From Pseudobdellovibrionaceae bacterium (GTDB lineage: Bacteria; Bdellovibrionota; Bdellovibrionia; Bdellovibrionales; Bdellovibrionaceae), in assembly GCA_044359815.1 (NCBI GenBank), contig JBIKLL010000087.1, positions 1 through 10,087 of the forward strand: a stretch of 10,087 bases of DNA, given 5' to 3'. This document shows, piece after piece, positions 3-10,028 of the stretch. Each line of letters starts with the position of its first letter. The stretch's first letter is position 1. The notes under the pieces are model-generated. The model had not been told where the DNA came from. It did not search any database and saw nothing but the letters and a program-made list of their open reading frames with translations. Position numbers and translations under genes: made by a program.

Positions 3-1037
3 GATGGCGAACTGTTTATGGTCCACGGTGGGTTTTATTATCAGGTTTTGAAAAAGAAATTTTATCCCGGCGAACTGCCAAAGACTCTGCACTGGTTTAA
101 ATGGGAAGCGACAATAACTTGGATCACCGGAATCTTTTTATTTTTCCTGATGTATTATCTCAACGGTGCCGGATTAATGCTTTCTGCAAAACTGAATCCG
201 ACGATGACCCAATTTCAAGTCATCGCAATGAGTCTATCAATTATAATCCTGAGCTGGCTTGTCTATGATTTTATTTGGCTGCCAAGATTTGAAAAATTCA
301 AATTTGTATCTTTGTTTATCTCAGTGTTTTTGTTTTTTGGAATTGTATTTTTAAACACCTATATGTTCAGTGGCCGAGGGGCCTATATTTTGACAGGCGT
401 CATTATGGGAACCATGATGGTTTTAAATGTTTGGGTCAGGATATTGCCTGGGCAACGGAAAATGTTAGCGCAAGCTGAATCAGGACAGATACCCGATTAT
501 TCATTGGGACTGAAAGCCAAAAGCCGAAGCATTCACAATACCTATTTTACCTTTCCTGTTTTACTGATCATGATTTCAAACCATTATGCTTTTTTGTATA
601 ACTCTGAAAACAACGGATTGTTTTTGATTCTGTTAGCACTCAGTGGGGCTTTTATCCGCCATGCCATGGTTGCTCGTGAAAAAGCTTATCGCTGGCTATA
701 TGTGATCGGTTTTGGGATTTTATTTTACCTGTTTTATATTTCTGCACCCAAAACACAGACAATGATTCTCTCAGACAAAAATCCTGTCCCAGAATACAGT
801 CAAATCAAAGGCATTTTTCAAACTCACTGTTTAAGTTGCCATAGCAGCCAAAATACTGACAAGATTTTTACAGTGGCTCCGAAAAACTTTATTTTAGAAA
901 CAGAAGAACAGATCAAATTAAATGCAGCATCCATATATCAACGTGTTTGGGTAGACAGAAACATGCCTTTCAACAATCAAACTCAGATCACTGAGGCTGA
1001 ACGCGAAGCCATTGCTCGGTTTACTAAAAAACTCTGA
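3..1037 (+). CDS. puuD: Urate hydroxylase PuuD (membrane urate-oxidase N-terminal domain plus C-terminal cytochrome c); 5'-truncated by the window edge
   Basis: The frame is open from nt 3 (DGELF-MVHGGFYY), so the ATG at 18 is probably internal. PuuD motifs recognised: LHWFKWE..TWITG, GTMM..NVW..ILPGQRKM and RSIHNTYFTFPVLLIMISNHY. It has several TM helices, a haem-binding CLSCH (nt 828-842) and a distal MPFNN.T.IT..ER motif. The neighbouring genes are urate catabolic. Confidence 0.93.
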   Translation, partial: DGELFMVHGGFYYQVLKKKFYPGELPKTLHWFKWEATITWITGIFLFFLMYYLNGAGLMLSAKLNPTMTQFQVIAMSLSIIILSWLVYDFIWLPRFEKFKFVSLFISVFLFFGIVFLNTYMFSGRGAYILTGVIMGTMMVLNVWVRILPGQRKMLAQAESGQIPDYSLGLKAKSRSIHNTYFTFPVLLIMISNHYAFLYNSENNGLFLILLALSGAFIRHAMVAREKAYRWLYVIGFGILFYLFYISAPKTQTMILSDKNPVPEYSQIKGIFQTHCLSCHSSQNTDKIFTVAPKNFILETEEQIKLNAASIYQRVWVDRNMPFNNQTQITEAEREAIARFTKKL

Positions 1038-4000
1038 TCCTATTTATCCCACCATCTGGAAAAATTAAAACCTTTAGGTACCTGAATTTTTTTTGATTTT
1101 TTATTTTAAATATTTTTTTATTGCCCGCAAAGGGTTTCACAAAAGTCTTTGGAACTAACTGATCAAAACTGAGGGCTTCAAAATCACCGTCTTTGACCTT
1201 TGAGGCATCAATACCCTGGGGCGCATTTCCGGCCTCAATCGAAACAAATCGAGGATTGTTATTAACAAAATAACTAAAATCCAAAACGATTTCCTGAATA
1301 ACTGTTTTTTTGCAAAGCTCAATGATTACAAATTCACTATTACCCATCTGACGGCTTCTGGAATTTTCAAGACCATCAAACATATTTAGTGGCTCAAAGG
1401 GTGAAATCACCTGACTGGCCGGGGCATAGTGCTCGTTGCTGGCTGCAATGATTTTACCACCATTTAAACTGCAAGCCAGATCTTGGCTTTTATATTTTAA
1501 ATATTTCGGATCTAAAGCCAAGGTCATTGGCTTTTTAGTTTTTGGAATCAGGGCTTGAATCTTTTCACAAACAGCCCGCTCGGGTGGTTGAAACTGGGCT
1601 GCGATTTCATCTGGTAATTTCTCAAACAACTGAATCCGGCTGAGCCCACCATCAGGATAAATATTCACTCGTATTTTCGTGTAAGATTCACCTCTAGGAT
1701 TCAGTTTAATTTTTGTCGTTGAATGCCCCTCCATTTTAAACTGTGGCAAAATCGTCTGCCAGCTATCTGCAAATCCTTCCACACTGACCATGGGCGCTTG
1801 ATTGCCCAAATGAAATTCCGTGGACAGAAAAATAAAATTCACTTGGCTTTTTTTAATCAATTCAAACTCGGCACTGTCACAAGGTGATTGATTGTGTCTG
1901 GCACTTTCCCAAGAATCCATGATTTTACCCTGATTACCAAATAACCTTGGATCAAATGTGGGTTTACATGGGCTGATCAGATTCTCAGCCCTGGCAAATT
2001 TTTGATTGGAAACTTTTATGAGTTTTGCTTTTTGTAAAACATTAAACTGATTCAAGTCCATTAATACGCCATTGTCCCTGACAATTGATTCTGGCAGATC
2101 TGGCAAAAAGGCTTTGAATAACAAGTTTTTGTAACCTTGATTCACCTTTTGCTCAGTCGGAATATTTTCATCATCAAATGATTTCTGAAATTGATCAAAA
2201 TCAATCCCCGAAAACTCCATACTCTTAAGCAACAACTGCACAATTTCTGCTATTGCGTAAACACCTTCCTGATCAGCGTTGACCAGTACAGTGATAGTTT
2301 TTCCAAAATCTGGCCCCTGATAACAGCTTAAATAAATTGCCCTAAATCCATCATTGGCTCCTTGGTGCAACATGAACCGATTAGAGCCAGCTTCAATCAA
2401 AAATGTCCCTAATCCCGACAGGGCTTGCATAAAGTCTTTACTGCCAAAATCACATCCCCAAACCATTTGAACCACAAAATCATGCCAAGGATCTCTGGGA
2501 TTCACAAAGGCCCGCGCAAGCTTTGCATTAAATTGGCAAACAGCCATTGCACTTGCACTGAATCCCGCTGCAAACGCAGGAAATTTCAATAAAACAGAAT
2601 TACCGGCTTTTTTGCCAATGGCATGATTAGAATTTTGATTAAAATAAAACCCATGCTGTTTTAAAAACGGCGACAGAATTTTTTGTATGCTTTTTTTCTC
2701 GAGAGTCTCTAGTAAATGTTCCAGAATTAAAAAACCACCCCCCGAATAATTGAACTGAGTCCCGGGATCAGGATGACAATCAATAGCCTGATAGCCAAAC
2801 TGATCGGGGTTTAATAAAATTTTTGTAACTGATGGGAGCTGATTTTTAAAGCCACTGACATAATGTAAATTTAAAGCCGTGTGATTGAGCAAGCTTCTGA
2901 TCGGAACCTTTTTTGAAAGCTGCAGCTTAGATCCAGCTTTGCCCAGCCAATCATTGACCATATCATCCAAATCGATGCCTTTTTTCAAAAAATACTGCTG
3001 ACAAAAAATCGAGGCCACAGTTTTACTGAGACTGGCTATTTGAAACAGTTTTTTGGATTGAGGTCCAACACCAAATTGACTGCCATTCACAGAAACCTGT
3101 GCGGATTCCACACCATGCTTTTTTAAAATTTCAGAAATCTCTGTTTTTAAATCTAGCGAACTCTGTTGCTGCATTCTTTTGACAGTGATTTCTGCCAGTG
3201 CTTTCTTGGCATTCATCAACTCTTTGGCGGCAGAACCCTTAATACGCTGCTTTAAAGCCTTTAACATTTCTGCCGAGGACTTGCCCTTTGCTGAAATTAA
3301 AAACTTAAACCCAAATTTCTTCAGGTAATCTTGACCTAGTTTTTTTAACTCACTCCTGGATCTGTCATCCATATCTTGTTGAGCTCGAGCTTGCTCGCTG
3401 GTGGCCTGGGCATCTAAGGTTTTTGCGCTTTCACCAATATCACCATGAAAATGAGCAGCCTCGATCACTTGTTTTTTTGAAAACTGCATAATGCAATCAG
3501 AAATATCAGCCTGATCATAAAAATCAGTTTCCGACATTTTGTCTGCAAACCATTGGCAGGAACACAATTCATAAAAATAATCCCAATCCCTAATTTCTTT
3601 AGGCAGCTTTAAAAGTTCAGGCCGATCCGACTGGATTTTTTTAAGAGGATCAATTGAATTTCTGGCACCCTCATCAGTAAATGGCATCAAAAGCTCACTG
3701 ACAAATTCGCAGGGGTTTGAATCAAAAACCAATTTCATAAAAATCAATTTTGCAGTGGGATACCATTTAGCTGTTTCCTGGTTCCATTTTACGGCGACTA
3801 TTTTTTGTTTGTTTGAAAAATCTTTTCTGATAAACAGCAATTCCTGATGAATGATTTTTATCAGTTCAGTTTTTTTAAACCTGCTATGATAAATTTCGTG
3901 CCAGACTTCCCAGCGCGACCGTTCACAGGTGGCCAGATCATCCATAACCCTGACTGCCGTCCCGCCAATATTAGCAGGCAGGGCCACACAACCATTGCCA

Positions 4001-5517
4001 CACAACCAATCTGCTAAATACTGCAAACTCTGAAAAACATTGTATCTGATTTCATCAGGATGATTGTTTGCAATAAAATCAGATTTTTTAATGTCACAGA
4101 CTATTAGTTTATTAATTTCGATATCTGAATTTAGCTTGGATGGGGATTTTTTAGCACCCACAGCTTTTTTGGCAGGCAATTTTTTCTTTTGATCTGATAG
4201 GTTTTTGATTAATCCTAAAATTTCCGTTTGGTGCTTTGCTTTCAGAAACGCTTTAACAAGGGATTTTAAATCTGCAGAATTATTTTTATAACTCCAAACC
4301 AGGGCCAGTCCCAGTCTGACAAAATCTGGATGAGCCACCCAAAAACCATCCAGGCCCCGGGATAATTGTATAATCACATCCTTAAAAAAACCTTTTAGCG
4401 TCAGTTGATAACTGTCTGAAAATAAATCTTTACCCAACGGCAGAACCCCATACATTCCGCCAATTTTGATTCCACCCCTATCACCCACGACCTGTGACAA
4501 CAATCGATGGGAAGCCGCTATGTGTTTGATAACGATTTCCGGATCAGCCTTTACGGGTATTCTGTATTGGGAATCAAATCTGGACAGCCTGGCCATGGAG
4601 GCTAAAAAATCATGCCACCCCAAAGAGGCTCCTGCAAAATAGGGATCCAATGCGGTTATGATTTCATTGGCTCGCAATATGGCCCTGGGGTTTTCCAATA
4701 CAATCATCAATTTCACTGTGCCCATTTTGTAATTTGGATTTATTGATTGGATTTTTTCTTCGGCCCTATGAATCAATAATTTAACATAAGAAGCTTCTTC
4801 TTCATTTTCGATCTTGGGAATATAAAAACACAATGCCTCTGGAAAATTTTGATTTTCAAATAAATGGTTGGCGAAATCCCACAGATGCAAAGGGGCCTGC
4901 AAATGCAAAAAATTTCCCTGCAATGCCAAACCTGGAATGCGCTTTATGGGCTTCGCTAAATGTGTGGCTTGCAATCTGTACTGCTGGCTGTCTGAAACAA
5001 CATTTAAAGTTTTGTTAAAGCATTTGTTGAGGTTTTTCTGAGCGATCAATAAATCCTGCATTAATGGAGTTTTTGAATCTTCGTCGTCAGCTCCCCAAAA
5101 CGGGATCAAATCTGATTTGGCTAAAATTTCTGCCAGTATTTCAGGTTCCTGGGGAAGTTTTCGGTGGTAGGAATTCATGGCATTAATACAAAGCTTGGCA
5201 TCCCCTGGCGGACCAAACAAAGTCACATGGGGGCCTTGTATAAATTCAGGTATATTTTTAACGGGATCACCATAGCCACGATCAAAATGATTATTTCTGG
5301 GACCAAAAACAATGCGGCCCTCGGAATCCGTCTGACCAATCACTCTCATGTAATCCGGATGATCAGGAGTTAAACCCAACTGCTGATTGAATTGTGAAAT
5401 CACTTTCACACGCTCATCGATAAAAGCTCGGTCTTGAACCCTTTGCTTGAGCACTTTTTCGTAGTCTGTTTTTATCTGATCATAGAGCCAACTGACAAAA
5501 GACTCAGCTGTGCGCAT
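1024..5517 (-). CDS. Four-domain polyprotein, 1497 aa: malate synthase A / OHCU decarboxylase / beta-lactamase-fold serine hydrolase / allantoicase
   Basis: Single uninterrupted ORF with its ATG 2 nt downstream of the uraH stop. Each domain has recognisable family motifs (see the domain entries). Confidence 0.92.
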   Translation of the reverse strand: MRTAESFVSWLYDQIKTDYEKVLKQRVQDRAFIDERVKVISQFNQQLGLTPDHPDYMRVIGQTDSEGRIVFGPRNNHFDRGYGDPVKNIPEFIQGPHVTLFGPPGDAKLCINAMNSYHRKLPQEPEILAEILAKSDLIPFWGADDEDSKTPLMQDLLIAQKNLNKCFNKTLNVVSDSQQYRLQATHLAKPIKRIPGLALQGNFLHLQAPLHLWDFANHLFENQNFPEALCFYIPKIENEEEASYVKLLIHRAEEKIQSINPNYKMGTVKLMIVLENPRAILRANEIITALDPYFAGASLGWHDFLASMARLSRFDSQYRIPVKADPEIVIKHIAASHRLLSQVVGDRGGIKIGGMYGVLPLGKDLFSDSYQLTLKGFFKDVIIQLSRGLDGFWVAHPDFVRLGLALVWSYKNNSADLKSLVKAFLKAKHQTEILGLIKNLSDQKKKLPAKKAVGAKKSPSKLNSDIEINKLIVCDIKKSDFIANNHPDEIRYNVFQSLQYLADWLCGNGCVALPANIGGTAVRVMDDLATCERSRWEVWHEIYHSRFKKTELIKIIHQELLFIRKDFSNKQKIVAVKWNQETAKWYPTAKLIFMKLVFDSNPCEFVSELLMPFTDEGARNSIDPLKKIQSDRPELLKLPKEIRDWDYFYELCSCQWFADKMSETDFYDQADISDCIMQFSKKQVIEAAHFHGDIGESAKTLDAQATSEQARAQQDMDDRSRSELKKLGQDYLKKFGFKFLISAKGKSSAEMLKALKQRIKGSAAKELMNAKKALAEITVKRMQQQSSLDLKTEISEILKKHGVESAQVSVNGSQFGVGPQSKKLFQIASLSKTVASIFCQQYFLKKGIDLDDMVNDWLGKAGSKLQLSKKVPIRSLLNHTALNLHYVSGFKNQLPSVTKILLNPDQFGYQAIDCHPDPGTQFNYSGGGFLILEHLLETLEKKSIQKILSPFLKQHGFYFNQNSNHAIGKKAGNSVLLKFPAFAAGFSASAMAVCQFNAKLARAFVNPRDPWHDFVVQMVWGCDFGSKDFMQALSGLGTFLIEAGSNRFMLHQGANDGFRAIYLSCYQGPDFGKTITVLVNADQEGVYAIAEIVQLLLKSMEFSGIDFDQFQKSFDDENIPTEQKVNQGYKNLLFKAFLPDLPESIVRDNGVLMDLNQFNVLQKAKLIKVSNQKFARAENLISPCKPTFDPRLFGNQGKIMDSWESARHNQSPCDSAEFELIKKSQVNFIFLSTEFHLGNQAPMVSVEGFADSWQTILPQFKMEGHSTTKIKLNPRGESYTKIRVNIYPDGGLSRIQLFEKLPDEIAAQFQPPERAVCEKIQALIPKTKKPMTLALDPKYLKYKSQDLACSLNGGKIIAASNEHYAPASQVISPFEPLNMFDGLENSRSRQMGNSEFVIIELCKKTVIQEIVLDFSYFVNNNPRFVSIEAGNAPQGIDASKVKDGDFEALSFDQLVPKTFVKPFAGNKKIFKIKNQKKFRYLKVLIFPDGGINRIRVF
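1027..2055 (-). other. Domain 4 (aa ~1155-1497): allantoicase, two tandem repeats
   Basis: Repeat 1: SNQKFA.AENLI, GKIMDSWESARH, TEFHLGN and NIYPDGGLSR. Repeat 2: DLA..LNGG.I.A.SNEHY, NMFDGLENSRSR and IFPDGGINRIRVF. Boundaries are approximate. Confidence 0.88.
2218..3150 (-). other. Domain 3 (aa ~790-1100): beta-lactamase/PBP-like serine hydrolase
   Basis: FQIAS829LSK832 (SxxK), LLNHTA (LLxHxS/A-like), PGTQFNY924SGGG (Y-x-x motif), H1051QGANDGF (HxG motif), and VLVN near the end of the domain. Boundaries are approximate. Confidence 0.9.
3163..3585 (-). other. Domain 2 (aa ~645-785): OHCU decarboxylase (UraD-like)
   Basis: HGDIG (H691; cf. HPxIG/HPDLA), SEQ (E708), Y.KKFGFKFLI.AKG, and C-terminal E...A..A...I...RM. 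Boundaries are approximate. Confidence 0.88.
3673..5517 (-). other. Domain 1 (aa ~1-615): malate synthase A-like (AceB type)
   Basis: VTLFGPP..KLCINAMN (cf. VEITGP..KMVINALN), ADDEDS (cf. ADFEDS), R193 in IKRIPG, FYIPKIE, VLEN (E275), LGWHDF (D303), GGM, GLDGFWVAHP, GNGCV and MDDLATCERSR (D527; cf. MEDAATAEISR). The catalytic Arg/Asp and Mg-ligand Glu/Asp appear retained. Boundaries are approximate. Confidence 0.88.
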
Positions 5518-5519
5518 AC

Positions 5520-5843
5520 TTATGATCCACGGTAGGTGGAATAGCCAAAGGGATTTAACAACAAGGGTACGTGATAATTTCGTTTTGAATCTGAAACTTT
5601 AAAGCAGACTTCGGTGTTATTAAAAAATGAAGGTATTTGTTTTTTACTGAAATAATCTTGTGTTTCGAAGGTCAGTTTGAAATCACCCGCCTGGGCTGTA
5701 AAATCAAATTTAATCCGCCCATCGCTGTTGGTTTTGTCAGTGGCAATAACCTTCCAGGTATCTGCGGTTTTGATTTCAAGTTTTACTTTAACACCAGATG
5801 CAGGTTCCCCGCAGCTGGTGTCCAAGATATGGGTGCTAATCAT
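5520..5843 (-). CDS. uraH: 5-hydroxyisourate (HIU) hydrolase, transthyretin-like, cytoplasmic
   Basis: STHILDT..G.PA, TNSDGR, YHVPLLLNPFGYST and the diagnostic C-terminal YRGS. No signal peptide. An AGGA SD-like sequence overlaps the upstream TAG stop. Confidence 0.96.
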   Translation of the reverse strand: MISTHILDTSCGEPASGVKVKLEIKTADTWKVIATDKTNSDGRIKFDFTAQAGDFKLTFETQDYFSKKQIPSFFNNTEVCFKVSDSKRNYHVPLLLNPFGYSTYRGS

Positions 5844-5849
5844 AGGTTC

Positions 5850-6707
5850 CTAAAATCCAAATCCAAATTTACCTGTGACACTGCTGGTATCAAAAGCTTT
5901 TGAATATTCAACCCCCAAAGACATCAAAACCAATTTTGCATTGAAGCCCACAATCAACTGTGTGGTCGATACCTTGGTGCTTGATGCTTGTGCTGAAGTC
6001 ACTGAAACATCAAATACAGTCCCCGTACCTGTGACCTCCAGATCATTTTTCGCATTGATAAATCCAATGCCACCGTAGGGTTCTAAAAATGGAATTTTAG
6101 GGCTCAGCAGTAACTGCACTCCTGTGACTGCGTTTTTATTGTCAACTGTTCCCGAAACTCCGCTCTGAGCCTGCACAAAAGAAAATTTTGAAGTCGTTGA
6201 AAATAATCTGGTCGAGAAATTGAGCGGTAACACTGGGATCAATTCATCAATTGAAATCTTTAATGCCATTGACGTGGATTGAAAATTCCCATCATCGCCA
6301 CCCATCTTAGGAACCATGGCTATTTCACCAGTAAGCCCAAATGGAATGGTCAGAGCTCCATAAAGGCCAAAATTTGCTATCTGTCCTAAGCTGTTTCCAG
6401 CGCTGCTGGCTTTAACAATTGCATCCAATTTAGGAGTCGCCGTTGTTCCGCCCATAATGCCAAACTCAAAGCCAAAAATGCTGCCTAATCCAGCGGCACC
6501 CTGTCCTGCTTTATGCATAAAATTGGCTGAAAACTCCTTAGATAAATCCGTGAAATTTTGTTCGGTTAAAGAACTAAATCCAATTGCAGCCTGAGCCTGG
6601 TTAACAACACTTCCCATAACAATAAAAGACACCATCGCTATCAGAACTACTGATACCCTGAAATCCTTTAGATTATTAAAAACACTTAATACTTTCAAAT
6701 TTTTCAT
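5850..6707 (-). CDS. Putative outer-membrane beta-barrel protein (about 285 aa), function unknown
   Basis: Start moved from 6758 to ATG 6707, which has GAAGGGG 6 nt upstream. Signal peptide ends ...NQAQA. Amphipathic beta-strands (GFEFGIMGG, FGLYGALTI, LEPYGGIGF, LSLGVEY-like) and a C-terminal GKFGFGF BAM-type signal. Confidence 0.75.
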   Translation of the reverse strand: MKNLKVLSVFNNLKDFRVSVVLIAMVSFIVMGSVVNQAQAAIGFSSLTEQNFTDLSKEFSANFMHKAGQGAAGLGSIFGFEFGIMGGTTATPKLDAIVKASSAGNSLGQIANFGLYGALTIPFGLTGEIAMVPKMGGDDGNFQSTSMALKISIDELIPVLPLNFSTRLFSTTSKFSFVQAQSGVSGTVDNKNAVTGVQLLLSPKIPFLEPYGGIGFINAKNDLEVTGTGTVFDVSVTSAQASSTKVSTTQLIVGFNAKLVLMSLGVEYSKAFDTSSVTGKFGFGF

Positions 6708-6729
6708 TATCATCCCCTTCGTTTTAAAA

Positions 6730-6758
6730 ATTGTATGTTCTTGCAATTTATAATTCAA
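6730..6758 (-). promoter_or_regulatory. Sigma70-type promoter for the OMP-uraH-polyprotein operon
   Basis: Minus strand: TTGAAT (6758-6753), 17 nt, TACAAT (6735-6730). The predicted TSS at about 6723 lies just upstream of the SD at 6714-6720. Confidence 0.6.
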
Positions 6759-6769
6759 CCCTCTAAAAT
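6741..6769 (+). promoter_or_regulatory. Sigma70-type promoter for the DoxX gene (probably leaderless)
   Basis: TTGCAA (6741-6746), 17 nt, TAAAAT (6764-6769). The ATG follows 7 nt later at 6777, with no SD. Confidence 0.55.
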
Positions 6770-6776
6770 TTCAGAT

Positions 6777-7193
6777 ATGAAAAAACTTTTAGTCAAAATC
6801 ACAGAAGAACCCACTTTTTTGCAGAATATTGGCATCACTAGTCTGCGCGTTTACGTGGGACTGTCCATGGCCTTCGCTCACGGAATTAAAAAAGTTCCCC
6901 CGTCAGAGGGCTTTATCCAAGGTGTTACTGATTTGGGTTTCCCTGCACCTTTGTTTTTCGCATGGTCGGCAGGTTTGGCAGAATTAATGGGTGGAATCTT
7001 TTTGGCCATAGGTTTATTAACCAGACCCTCGGCATTTTTTATTGCCATTACGATGGCTGTAGCGGCCTTTGGCGCTCACGCCTCAGATCCTTTTCAAAAA
7101 AAGGAATTGGCAATTATGTTTATGGCGCTTTCATTGTTTTTTATGGTCAGGGGATCTACGAGGTATTCACTGGATCGATTTTTAAACAGATAG
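6777..7193 (+). CDS. DoxX family inner-membrane protein (about 138 aa)
   Basis: LRVYVG..MAFAHG..K, GFPAP..FAW.AGLAEL.GG..LAIGLLTRP.A, M.VA.F.AH, KELA and G..RYSLD: a typical 4-TM DoxX pattern. Start moved to ATG 6777, which removes the overlap with the divergent ORF. Confidence 0.9.
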   Translation: MKKLLVKITEEPTFLQNIGITSLRVYVGLSMAFAHGIKKVPPSEGFIQGVTDLGFPAPLFFAWSAGLAELMGGIFLAIGLLTRPSAFFIAITMAVAAFGAHASDPFQKKELAIMFMALSLFFMVRGSTRYSLDRFLNR

Positions 7194-7810: not shown

Positions 7811-8971
7811 GTGCTGGCATTACTGTTATCATTAAATTTATTTGCAGATCTGAAAGTGATTCCCTCTGACCTTAAAAAATGGGAATGGCACCAGTCAACC
7901 CTATTAGGTGGCTTTGTTAAACCTGAAAACGACCTGTCCATCGAAAGGTCCGTTCAAGGTCCTAATGGCCCTTTGAAAGTCCGCATCTGGAAAACCCAAG
8001 ACAGCAAAGGGCTATACGTTTTGATACCAGGAACTGGAGCCGATGCTGATTCTGGTAATGCCGGCGTGTTGGCCGAGACCATTTACAAAAACGGTTTTGA
8101 TGTTTTGATTTTGGCCAACCCTTTTGTTGTGGATTTTCAAAATTCATTTTCCAGCGATGGTTTGATTGGATTTCCACAAAAAGATAAACCTGATATTTAT
8201 AATATGATTTTCACAGCACTGAATCAATTTAGTACGGAGTTTGGAGAACCCAAATCCTTGAACATCACTGGATTTTCGCTGGGTGGATTTTATGTTGAAA
8301 TGCTAAGGCCCGAATTAAGCCGCATTGGCTTTAAGAAATTCATCGCTTTGAATCCTCCCTTAAATTTTTCACATGCCATGCATCAATTGGACGAACTGAT
8401 TCGTATCAGAATGGATGAAGACCCTTCGCTATTAGATTTGTTGGATCAATTGATTCCGTTGTTTAGACTGGTCAGAAAAGGCCTCAACAAGATTAACTTG
8501 CTGCTGCTCAAAGAACGCATTGGTGACAACGAAGATCAAAATAAATATTTGATCGGCAGATCCTTTCAGAGTGTTTTAAAACGAATCTTAGAGGAAACTG
8601 TCAAACGCGAGCCCTTCAGATCTGAGTACCGTGGTACAAGGATTTTATTGAACAAAGACTACATAACCTTTTCGAAATTTTTGGGCTACGTTGGCGTAGT
8701 GGTGGGTGTGCAAGAACCGCTTAAGGGAAAAACCCTAGCTGATCTGGTTGAAGAATTGGATCTTATCGAAATGATCAATCAAAATGGAAATTCTGAAAAT
8801 CTGTATGTTTTTACTAATGGCGATGATTTTTTAAATACAAAAAAACAGCTCAAATCCCTAGTGCAAAATCGCAGTGTTAAAACCTTTGTGTTTAAAGACG
8901 GCGGGCATTGCGGAAATTATTGGACCCCTAGCTTTATCAAAGAATTCGGAAGGGTTTTGAGCGCTCCTTAA
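7811..8971 (+). CDS. Probably secreted alpha/beta-fold hydrolase (lipase/esterase-like)
   Basis: GTG start with AAGGA upstream and a short signal peptide (MLALLLSLNLFA). Oxyanion LIPGTG, nucleophile elbow GFS156LGG, acid in NGDD339F and His in GGH366CGN. Confidence 0.85.
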   Translation: MLALLLSLNLFADLKVIPSDLKKWEWHQSTLLGGFVKPENDLSIERSVQGPNGPLKVRIWKTQDSKGLYVLIPGTGADADSGNAGVLAETIYKNGFDVLILANPFVVDFQNSFSSDGLIGFPQKDKPDIYNMIFTALNQFSTEFGEPKSLNITGFSLGGFYVEMLRPELSRIGFKKFIALNPPLNFSHAMHQLDELIRIRMDEDPSLLDLLDQLIPLFRLVRKGLNKINLLLLKERIGDNEDQNKYLIGRSFQSVLKRILEETVKREPFRSEYRGTRILLNKDYITFSKFLGYVGVVVGVQEPLKGKTLADLVEELDLIEMINQNGNSENLYVFTNGDDFLNTKKQLKSLVQNRSVKTFVFKDGGHCGNYWTPSFIKEFGRVLSAP

Positions 8972-9498
8972 GAGCCCTTGTCCTCGTCGCGTTTTTTTTC
9001 TTTGATAATTTTATTTTGATAAGCAATGTCGCCAAAATGTTTTTTTGCGGCCTGGTTGTAGGCCAGAGCTGCGTCGTCTTCGTCATCAAAATTTCCCAGA
9101 TTGATGGCTTTGCCGTTGACCTCGATACCGGCACGCCATTTTTTTTCTTTGGCTGAAAACGAAACCCCTCTGTACTGCGAAGATTTGTGTTTGCGATTTT
9201 TAGGCAGCAGTCTTTGACGGTCTTTTAAAGTGCAGACGATTAAATTGTCTTTTCGATAATCCAAACCATCGTTAAAACGCCTAGGGTAAACCTGCATCCC
9301 AGTTTCGGGCTTCATTAAAAACTTGCCCAGAGTCATGGTTTTGACTTTGCCCTTTTCTCGGTACGAAGTCACAACTCTGATTCTGCCAGTGGTTCCTTTG
9401 GTGACTCGCCAACTGTGTTGATTCACCCTATCAAAATCTTCTTCGTCAATTTTGACTTTCATATTTGGATGCACATCTAACCAGCGCCACTTTTTCAT
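8968..9498 (-). CDS. AP2/ERF DNA-binding domain protein with a degenerate N-terminal HNH-like region (about 176 aa)
   Basis: ATG 9498 with GAGGA 7 nt upstream. AP2 domain SQYRGVS....KKWRAGI...GK.INLG.F..E.DAA.AYN.AA...FG. The N-terminal part (IDEEDF..V..HSW, LDYRK.NL) resembles phage HNH-AP2 endonucleases. Confidence 0.85.
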   Translation of the reverse strand: MKKWRWLDVHPNMKVKIDEEDFDRVNQHSWRVTKGTTGRIRVVTSYREKGKVKTMTLGKFLMKPETGMQVYPRRFNDGLDYRKDNLIVCTLKDRQRLLPKNRKHKSSQYRGVSFSAKEKKWRAGIEVNGKAINLGNFDDEDDAALAYNQAAKKHFGDIAYQNKIIKEKKRDEDKGS

Positions 9499-9533
9499 TG
9501 TCTTTTCCTCAGGTATAAATAAACTCAATAAAT

Positions 9534-10028
9534 ATGAAAAAACTCATACTCACATCCATTTTATTATTGGTAAGTTCCCCTGTTTTTGCAAATCTATTGA
9601 TTGAACCCTACATCGGATACAACCGAGGACAACACGGCGGAAGTCGAGGTCAAGGATTGGGATACGGAGCCCGCTTTGGTGCCGAATTCACAGAGGCGTT
9701 TTTAGCGGCTGACATCGGCCTAGCAGACATTCAGTTAAGCAACAGCACCAGTGCCAAGTACACTGACATTGGCGCGGCCTTTGGGCTGAAGAGCTCCAAT
9801 GTGCGCTTTTGGTTTGGGTATGCGTTTTCTGCTCAGGCTGTCGTCGGAAACTCTACTGACAAAGGCTCTGGGATTAAAATAGGCATCGGCATCCCCATTG
9901 CTTCAAAAGTTTATTTTAATACCGAAGTCAAAACCTACGACTACACAGAAACTACTACAGGATCGACAACAGTTTCCAACACCACCTACGGTACCTATGG
10001 CATGTTTGGACTGAGTATGGTTTTTTAG
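9534..10028 (+). CDS. Small (about 8-stranded) outer-membrane beta-barrel protein
   Basis: Signal peptide MKKLILTSILLLVSSPVFA. Strands IEPYIGY, GYGARFG, GIKIGIG and VYFNTEV, ending in a C-terminal GLSMVF. Confidence 0.8.
   Translation: MKKLILTSILLLVSSPVFANLLIEPYIGYNRGQHGGSRGQGLGYGARFGAEFTEAFLAADIGLADIQLSNSTSAKYTDIGAAFGLKSSNVRFWFGYAFSAQAVVGNSTDKGSGIKIGIGIPIASKVYFNTEVKTYDYTETTTGSTTVSNTTYGTYGMFGLSMVF

Follow-up and report, generated by a model that had tools for sequence, protein, structure and literature searches.

Where does a polypeptide that joins four enzymes of purine breakdown end its work, and which of its parts opens the allantoin ring? Urate breakdown is a textbook pathway, several steps of which have evolved more than once, and both questions are raised by a gene on contig JBIKLL010000087.1 of a Pseudobdellovibrionaceae bacterium. 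The window that we analyzed, 10,087 nucleotides long, is that entire contig (C112 of the source genome G000, which comprises 2.95 Mb in 125 contigs and is 91% complete). The minus strand of the window carries an open reading frame (ORF; 1024..5517) of 1497 amino acids (aa), with an ATG start and a translation free of internal stops. The initial annotation had read this gene as a chain of malate synthase, 2-oxo-4-hydroxy-4-carboxy-5-ureidoimidazoline (OHCU) decarboxylase, serine hydrolase and allantoicase, with malate as a possible endpoint. We confirm that the ORF encodes a genuine four-module ureide-pathway enzyme. We propose a different endpoint, a four-step route from OHCU to glyoxylate and two molecules of urea, which we hold at an even chance in its complete form; in it, the serine hydrolase is a candidate allantoinase and the malate-synthase-like module a candidate ureidoglycolate lyase.

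Five Pfam domains, all above their gathering scores, mark out the chain: MS_TIM-barrel PF01274 (residues 225–404, 56 bits), MS_C PF20659 (488–606, 33.9 bits), OHCU_decarbox PF09349 (653–782, 76.9 bits against a cut-off of 24), Beta-lactamase PF00144 (818–948, 43.1 bits against 27) and two Allantoicase repeats PF03561 (1164–1497, 180.8 bits). The ORF list, the translation and the Pfam matches thus agree with the single stop-free frame and the domain order first described, and the junctions named at that time, near positions 3600, 3155 and 2100, coincide with the Pfam-based domain limits. The claim of intact catalytic motifs also held up: every candidate catalytic residue that we could place is conserved in 180–182 of 182 full-length family members, a set that consists of the query (P0001), 61 ORFs from related loci and 120 database proteins, with duplicates possible.

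The proposed route, in which we infer the substrates of the beta-lactamase-fold and malate-synthase-like modules, would begin with two separate proteins encoded next to the fusion gene: PuuD would convert urate into hydroxyisourate (HIU), and UraH would convert HIU into OHCU. Within the fusion protein, the OHCU decarboxylase (UraD) module would decarboxylate OHCU to (S)-allantoin. The beta-lactamase-fold module would then open the hydantoin ring of allantoin to give allantoate, acting as a serine-hydrolase allantoinase in place of AllB or PuuE, and the allantoicase module would split allantoate into ureidoglycolate and urea. Finally, the malate-synthase-like module would split ureidoglycolate into glyoxylate and urea in place of AllA, in parallel with the malate-synthase-like ureidoglycolate lyase of eukaryotes. 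The modules stand in the chain as steps 4, 1, 2 and 3, an order that differs from that of the pathway, and channelling of intermediates between them is possible.

Two of the four modules belong to families already assigned to this pathway. The UraD module aligns to the solved OHCU decarboxylases 5uou, 3o7h and 2q37, with the histidine of the H-x-x-I-G motif and the C-terminal arginine in place; H691, E708 and R781, which we take to be the catalytic residues of an OHCU decarboxylase, are each conserved in 181 of 182 members. The allantoicase module matches the solved allantoicases 1o59 and 1sg3 (E 3e-29). Both modules score below their NCBIfam equivalog cut-offs (70 against 139.4 bits for UraD; 185.4 against 277.9 bits on TIGR02961 for allantoicase), as expected for divergent fused forms.

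Between UraD and allantoicase, the pathway requires an allantoinase, and because no known allantoinase was found in genomes with the fusion, the beta-lactamase-fold module becomes the candidate. None of the 41 Bdellovibrionota relatives has AllB (TIGR03178) over the cut-off, and PuuE (TIGR03212) was not found in the six of these genomes that carry the fusion. Five further fusion genomes from four other families likewise have neither AllB (0/5) nor PuuE (0/5) over the cut-off, so that a known allantoinase is missing from all 11 fusion genomes by this measure. Conversely, all five tested Myxococcota genomes that combine allantoicase with a stand-alone malate-synthase-like gene carry a true AllB (509–573 bits) directly beside the allantoicase, and these five show no PuuE and no match to the beta-lactamase-fold module. 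A metagenomic allantoin operon described below (L121) has PuuE and no beta-lactamase-fold module. In the sets examined, therefore, the module takes the position of AllB, and its distribution complements those of AllB and PuuE.

The module itself has the marks of a serine hydrolase. Its motifs S829-x-x-K832, Y924-S-G and H1051-x-G1053 are kept in 181–182 of 182 members and also in stand-alone and two-domain forms, and its AlphaFold2 model is highly confident (predicted local distance difference test (pLDDT) 95.3). The nearest folds in the PDB are an FmtA-like protein, LACTB, the R61 DD-peptidase, D-stereospecific amidohydrolases and AmpC, at TM ~0.6–0.68 and 14–20% identity; a Protein Atlas look-up returned generic beta-lactamase clusters only. 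No NCBIfam model matches the module, hence it shows no homology to AllB or PuuE. The subfamily is narrow: among 30 hits of 195–622 aa, about half have allantoicase repeats, most lie on contigs of a few kb and a few are stand-alone proteins on long contigs. Where the fusion is split, in genome G297, the module stays joined to allantoicase in a 772-aa protein. For an S-x-x-K serine hydrolase, opening a cyclic amide would be chemically ordinary. The label 'serine hydrolase', which had been left without a role, thus gains hydrolase motifs and a fold, and the candidate allantoinase role is one that we assign here from the missing AllB and PuuE. A 364-aa protein from a eukaryotic transcriptome collection (P0269) aligns to the module with 31% identity over 84% of the query (E 2e-22); it is either contamination or a real eukaryotic relative.

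Some structural features weigh against an allantoinase. Class C enzymes have Y-x-N as their middle motif, whereas the module has Y-S-G and lacks the asparagine. Among solved structures, its closest folds belong to DD-peptidases, D-stereospecific amidases and esterases and not to hydrolases of cyclic ureides. The module might instead be another amidase, acting on a ureido group or on a peptide-like prey metabolite, or a non-catalytic scaffold, with allantoin hydrolyzed by an enzyme that our models fail to recognize, for example one from a dihydroorotase paralogue family. A dihydroorotase-like amidohydrolase does score 120–285 bits on the allantoinase model in nearly every genome searched. However, such a match (~260 bits) is present in 39 of the 41 genomes, with the pathway or without it, and in the source genome it passes the dihydroorotase cut-off. 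The conserved Ser, Lys, Tyr and His motifs argue for an active enzyme, the subfamily hardly occurs outside this fusion and fusions with allantoicase, and the module sits at the exact AllB position before allantoicase. We consider this alternative unlikely, although it is one to be taken seriously.

Three individual candidates for a hidden allantoinase or an extra pathway gene were tried and rejected. The ~260-bit match to the allantoinase model in the source genome is its dihydroorotase (NF006559, 610 bits against a cut-off of 482). The fusion gene of Bdellovibrio sp. HCB337 is directly followed by a gene for a distant polysaccharide deacetylase (L030, 12564–13463; PF01522, 47.8 bits), which we considered as a hidden PuuE and count as a caveat to a new allantoinase. 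The PuuE model does not match it, and only one of 80 loci has it, so it offers no general explanation. A 453-aa ORF without a Pfam match in the myxobacterial locus L223 is an opposite-strand shadow of the AllB gene.

We return to the malate-synthase-like module, on which the endpoint of the route depends. Its homology to malate synthase A (MSA) is clear, but it is not an ordinary MSA. A structure model, one of the checks suggested with the initial annotation, is confident (AlphaFold2, pLDDT 90) and has E. coli MSA (3cv2/3cuz) as its best PDB match at TMt ~0.80 (0.79–0.81) and 21–22% identity, with the TIM barrel and C-terminal plug of the MSA fold present in the predicted structure. In the alignment to 3cuz (numbered as chain index +1, checked on E250, D278 and D447), R193, E275, D303, W393 and D527 correspond to R166, E250, D278, W365 and D447 of the E. 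coli enzyme and are conserved in 181–182 of 182 members. Arg166 is catalytic in MSA, and Glu250 and Asp278 are the Mg ligands. Asp447 is described as the catalytic base in PMC3112382.

The module also departs from E. coli AceB (3CUZ/3CV2): the fold and the catalytic Arg/Glu/Asp/Asp are the same, whereas the R276/W277 pair of the G-R-W-D-Y motif is replaced by an invariant pair, W301/H302, and extra segments are present. Eight residues are inserted ahead of the catalytic Asp, and additional segments follow the I-N-A-M-N motif, enlarge the N-terminal part and extend the linker that leads to the C-terminal domain. On the MSA equivalog model (TIGR01344), the module reaches 98.9 bits against a cut-off of 594.5. 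The source genome has a true MSA elsewhere, on contig C25 (663.3 bits), followed by isocitrate lyase in an aceB-aceA arrangement; the module and this MSA share 25% identity over 490 aligned columns. The name 'malate synthase' is therefore sound as to fold and catalytic residues and fails on the equivalog score and on the changed R276/W277 pair.

Outside the fusion, the malate-synthase-like module occurs as a stand-alone protein of ~680 aa (44–58% identity) in Desulfobulbales, Myxococcota, Bradymonadaceae and Planctomycetota, and it is also found joined to UraD in a two-domain protein of 846 aa, encoded on a 468-kb contig. We sampled 301 Myxococcota genomes evenly for co-occurrence; the Fisher p values below are not corrected for kinship, and both overstate the signal. 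The gene is present in 35 of the 301 genomes, in 34 of them not fused to the other three modules (frames of ~680–1200 aa, most near 700), allantoicase in 73, a strong AllA match in 20 and a weak one in six more. Allantoicase accompanies the malate-synthase-like gene in 32 of 35 genomes, against 41 of the 266 others (p 1e-19, kinship ignored). The 73 genomes with allantoicase divide into 32 with the malate-synthase-like gene, 18 with strong AllA, none with both and 23 with neither (p = 4e-6, kinship ignored), and the sole overlap is a 43-bit partial AllA-like match in G597. AllA (PF04115) was also found in none of the 41 Bdellovibrionota relatives.

Malate synthase proper shows no such exclusion. 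A true MSA (783–824 bits) stands alongside the malate-synthase-like gene in three of five Myxococcota genomes tested, and a second MSA-sized match occurs in three of six fusion genomes (G000 and G007, both over the MSA cut-off, and G015), with isocitrate lyase adjoining the true MSA in G000 and G007. Because the malate-synthase-like gene tracks allantoicase, excludes AllA and ignores MSA, it behaves as a replacement for AllA and not as a malate synthase. By comparison of coordinates, the gene lies within 10 kb of allantoicase in nine of 32 Myxococcota genomes, and 10 of 12 myxobacterial stand-alone genes have no pathway gene within 9 kb, so that neighbourhood alone is uninformative there.

A metagenomic operon points the same way. 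When we scanned metagenomes for stand-alone malate-synthase-like genes, 77 of the 80 loci kept held the fused form or fragments, and three (L120, L121 and L183) held a stand-alone gene. The protein at L121, 66% identical to one from Desulfosediminicola, is encoded in an allantoin operon that reads PuuE, ABC transporter, hydantoin racemase, malate-synthase-like gene, (S)-ureidoglycine aminohydrolase, allantoate amidohydrolase and GntR regulator. PuuE (525 bits against a cut-off of 424.6), (S)-ureidoglycine aminohydrolase (328.6 against 200) and allantoate amidohydrolase (469.5 against 452) all score over their cut-offs, and known enzymes account for every reaction that leads from allantoin to ureidoglycolate. 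Among the genes of this operon, we saw no AllA and no amidohydrolase or dehydrogenase for ureidoglycolate.

A precedent exists in eukaryotes. The zebrafish malate-synthase-like protein (DrMSL/UGL) is a ureidoglycolate lyase (UGL; Dembech et al., PNAS 2023, PMC10120013), and in that paper the malate-synthase-like enzyme of metazoa and some protists is identified as the missing UGL, with R276I and W365M replacements, an unconserved acetyl-coenzyme A (CoA) site and no malate synthase activity. The paper also states that its UGL group consists of eukaryotic sequences alone. The eukaryotic enzyme and the module share homology to MSA, a replaced Arg276 with the rest of the glyoxylate and Mg site kept, association with allantoicase and not with isocitrate lyase, and, for the module by our proposal, the last step of purine breakdown. 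They differ in that the module is bacterial, has Trp in place of R276 (Ile in eukaryotes) and His in place of W277, keeps W365 in 181 of 182 members (Met in eukaryotes) and carries eight inserted residues before the catalytic Asp instead of two. It is also ~640–700 aa long and fused to three other enzymes. In contrast to MSA, its gene context is purine breakdown and not the glyoxylate shunt, and isocitrate lyase lies beside the true MSA instead. Judging from its distribution, the module is probably a bacterial counterpart of the eukaryotic malate-synthase-like UGL, although residues of the acetyl-CoA pocket are retained.

Several observations weigh against this assignment as a lyase. The MSA catalytic set (the equivalents of R166, E250, D278 and D447) is retained. 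The acetyl-CoA surroundings of E. coli MSA, given in PMC3112382 as I94, T95, G96, M102, M330 and P369, appear by alignment to correspond to L100, F101, G102, L/M109, M355 and P397 of the module, four of six being identical and one conservative; residue 109 is Leu in 102 and Met in 79 of the 182 members. A loss of the pocket is not evident, unlike in the eukaryotic lyase, which is reported to have lost the site (PMC10120013), and W365 is kept. In G019, G036 and G040, three of the six fusion genomes, we found no further malate synthase and no isocitrate lyase over the cut-off, isocitrate lyase in G019 being a 61-bit partial match, and the module could be the only glyoxylate sink there. The exclusivity of the malate-synthase-like gene and AllA may partly reflect clade structure, and 23 of the 73 allantoicase-bearing Myxococcota have neither gene. 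Finally, the title of reference 42 in PMC10120013 reports ureidoglycolate as a substrate of allantoicase, so that a separate lyase may be unneeded.

These points could be read together as a working, divergent malate synthase, with ureidoglycolate split by allantoicase or decaying spontaneously and the chain running from OHCU to malate. The MSA-type fold (TMt 0.80) and the invariant catalytic equivalents fit that reading, as do the four identical CoA-pocket residues (of six named in PMC3112382) and the three genomes with no other malate synthase or isocitrate lyase; one myxobacterial homologue adjoins a phosphate acetyltransferase gene and another a gene for a thiamine pyrophosphate enzyme. We nevertheless judge it improbable: the equivalog score is a sixth of what is required, the R276/W277 pair has become an invariant W/H, and a true aceB-aceA pair resides in the same genome. 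Homologues coexist with true MSA and never with strong AllA (0/18), a pattern that a plain malate synthase leaves unexplained, and the L121 operon would be left without an enzyme to split ureidoglycolate. The expectation of malate as endpoint through malate synthase was accordingly not sustained, given the sub-cut-off score, the separate true MSA beside isocitrate lyase and the AllA-exclusive distribution.

A compromise would be a module with two functions, which would release urea from ureidoglycolate and then condense the bound glyoxylate with acetyl-CoA, so that glyoxylate is never free. This would reconcile the AllA-exclusive distribution with the kept catalytic base and acid and the CoA-pocket residues, and would fit the genomes that show no other glyoxylate sink. 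Such an enzyme has no precedent, however, and the activities of DrMSL and NvMS separate cleanly in PMC10120013. In G297, moreover, the malate-synthase-like gene is flanked by two class-V aminotransferase genes, one of them nearest to aspartate-glyoxylate aminotransferase (207 bits, sub-cut-off), which suggests that glyoxylate is released and aminated there; these aminotransferases may be the glyoxylate sink. We regard a dual function as distinctly improbable. The most far-reaching version, in which one polypeptide would carry all five steps from OHCU to malate by combining a third independently evolved allantoinase with a module that both releases urea and condenses the nascent glyoxylate, strikes us as a long shot.

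Two loci bear on how these genes are arranged outside the fusion. On G297:C12:1-19000 (L116), the order is PuuD, the 772-aa beta-lactamase and allantoicase protein, a class-V aminotransferase, a single-repeat allantoicase-like protein (166 aa), the malate-synthase-like gene (735 aa, on the opposite strand) and the second class-V aminotransferase; a second malate-synthase-like copy in this genome has an internal TAG and lies in an unrelated context. On G597:C6 (L223), a myxobacterial allantoicase-OHCU decarboxylase protein of 635 aa (13329–15236) adjoins AllB, UraH, PuuD and a stand-alone malate-synthase-like gene.

The four-module protein is widespread and its architecture stable. Full-length relatives occur in five of 40 related genomes (50–52% identity, open frames of 1492–1585 aa, no stops), and of 6126 candidates in a protein search with the whole length, 630 reached E<=1e-3. 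The 120 top-ranking proteins of these 630, all 1488–1582 aa long, cover 100% of the query at 47–50% identity and have the same five Pfam domains. Their database names are 'serine hydrolase' only at NCBI, and 'malate synthase' or 'allantoicase/malate synthase/CubicO group peptidase' at JGI. When each species was represented by one genome, a relative was encoded in 375 of 435 candidate stretches; 80 loci were kept for the locus-level analyses. Most of the 80 are labelled Bdellovibrionota, and 11 have other or no taxon labels, taken as given (Planctomycetia, Phycisphaerales, Gemmatimonadota, Polyangiaceae, Proteobacteria, Pseudomonadota and 'uncultured bacterium'). In an even sample of the phylum Bdellovibrionota, the N-terminal module (E<=1e-40) was found in 61 of 401 genomes and 31 of 204 genera, and 53 of 62 matches sit in open frames of at least 1400 aa.

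The sequence of the window is also reproduced. A single contig of run X1, possibly the sample from which the window derives, covers it from end to end, and contigs of three other lake-water runs cover 28–30 of 30 bins without a differing letter, an indel or a joint. The 24 runs listed include no RNA data set. Contigs from other runs bridge all three domain junctions (Table 1), where the independent contigs are identical and free of indels. That separate genes were joined by an assembly, sequencing or gene-calling error, as the origin of the window in a whole 10-kb contig of a metagenome-assembled genome and a frame change near residue 700 in two related genomes might suggest, is excluded for practical purposes by full-length relatives, the 120 best database proteins, the identical junctions in independent runs and the uninterrupted architecture in the complete isolate genomes of Bdellovibrio sp. 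HCB337 and Peredibacter sp. HCB2-198.

That frame change occurs at the same place in two different genera, in L118 (G142:C32, ~6882–6897) and L119 (G393:C19, ~9874–9882). It lies inside the UraD module and splits the gene into parts of ~730–760 aa and ~780 aa; a sequencing error, decay or a genuine split would each account for it. In the window, the N-terminus of the fusion protein (5382–5517) is ~45 residues shorter than in 33 aligned relatives, whose consensus begins F-E-I-P-Y-Y, and the 27 in-frame codons 5' of the ATG hold no start codon.

What is new here, if our assignments are right, would be neither the reactions nor the folds, which are known, but two fold-to-reaction assignments and the chain of four modules. 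Two of the modules come from families not previously tied to the ureide pathway in bacteria. The beta-lactamase-fold module would catalyze the same reaction as AllB (a cyclic amidohydrolase) and PuuE (polysaccharide-deacetylase fold) from the same place before allantoicase, with an unrelated fold and proposed mechanism, and would thus be an analogue and not a member of either family. Fusions of consecutive or neighbouring ureide enzymes have parallels in NF010373, a two-domain 'unknown domain/N-carbamoyl-L-amino acid hydrolase fusion protein' that the UraD module matches weakly, and in the allantoicase-UraD protein of L223, whereas the protein described here joins four modules. Our literature search found no description of this four-module protein, of a beta-lactamase-fold allantoinase or of a bacterial malate-synthase-like UGL, in line with the earlier remark that the architecture is not known to have been described; in the part consulted of a 2026 review of urate-pathway evolution, malate synthase is mentioned only as yeast DAL7 (PMC13751858).

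If borne out, the route would add a third and mechanistically different allantoinase, a serine hydrolase of beta-lactamase fold, and the first bacterial malate-synthase-type UGL, with a bearing on the origin of the eukaryotic enzyme, whose group is purely eukaryotic according to PMC10120013. It would correct the database names 'serine hydrolase', 'malate synthase' and 'aldolase/citrate lyase family protein', and would fill two gaps in the reconstructed metabolism of predatory bacteria, which live on prey nucleic acids. The protein would also provide a natural four-enzyme chain in which to study how unstable intermediates are handed over between active sites. The gene is present in cultured isolates and hence is directly testable.

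Table 1. Features of the window and the contigs that bridge the domain junctions
Feature	Position	Strand	Details
Malate-synthase-like module, candidate ureidoglycolate lyase	3598..5517	-	residues 1-640
OHCU decarboxylase (UraD) module	3166..3576	-	residues 648-784
Class-C beta-lactamase / S12-fold serine hydrolase module, candidate new-type allantoinase	2098..3162	-	residues 786-1140
Allantoicase module, two repeats	1027..2097	-	residues 1141-1497; stop codon 1024-1026
uraH (hydroxyisourate hydrolase)	5520..5843	-	TIGR02962, 130.8 bits against a cut-off of 87.45
puuD (membrane urate oxidase, cytochrome c tail)	3..1037 (ORF 3/18..1037)	+	PF06181 Urate_ox_N, 219.6 bits
DUF6588 protein	5850-6758	-	
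DoxX membrane protein	6735-7193	+	
Small protein	8968-9528	-	
Junction-bridging contig, X3 record 7	3054-3778		
Junction-bridging contig, X4 record 11	1976-2288		
Junction-bridging contig, X5 record 20	1919-2242		

The neighbourhood of the fusion gene fits a purine-breakdown unit. As first noted, the gene lies directly downstream of uraH and convergent with puuD, identified by their TIGR02962 and Urate_ox_N matches. The uraH stop codon lies two bases before the ATG of the fusion gene, and puuD overlaps it by 14 bases at the 3' ends and is truncated by the start of the contig. Of the 80 loci, 77 have UraH, which is codirectional and immediately upstream in 69 and divergent in seven, and 54 have PuuD. 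Strong PuuD matches (>200 bits) occur in exactly six of 41 genomes searched, the six with the fusion, always on the fusion contig and within ~2 kb. The only other recurrent neighbours are xanthine dehydrogenase subunits (14–18 loci), a sensor kinase and, in a few loci each, a cytidine-deaminase-family (CDA-fold) deaminase (eight loci), adenosine deaminase and an S1/P1 nuclease. Because PuuD matches are confined to fusion genomes and lie near the fusion gene, we describe the unit as puuD-uraH-fusion in surroundings of purine salvage and breakdown. Such a unit would fit predators that digest the nucleic acids of their prey.

Upstream of uraH, the window also encodes a DoxX membrane protein, a DUF6588 protein and a small protein whose AP2 match, at 28 bits, stays below the 33.3-bit cut-off; these genes do not recur beside the fusion gene in the loci of relatives. 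A 44-residue N-terminal piece of PuuD lies at the end of another contig of the source genome (G000:C91:12563-12694). At its C-terminus, PuuD has a weak cytochrome c domain here and a CarboxypepD_reg-like domain in relatives.

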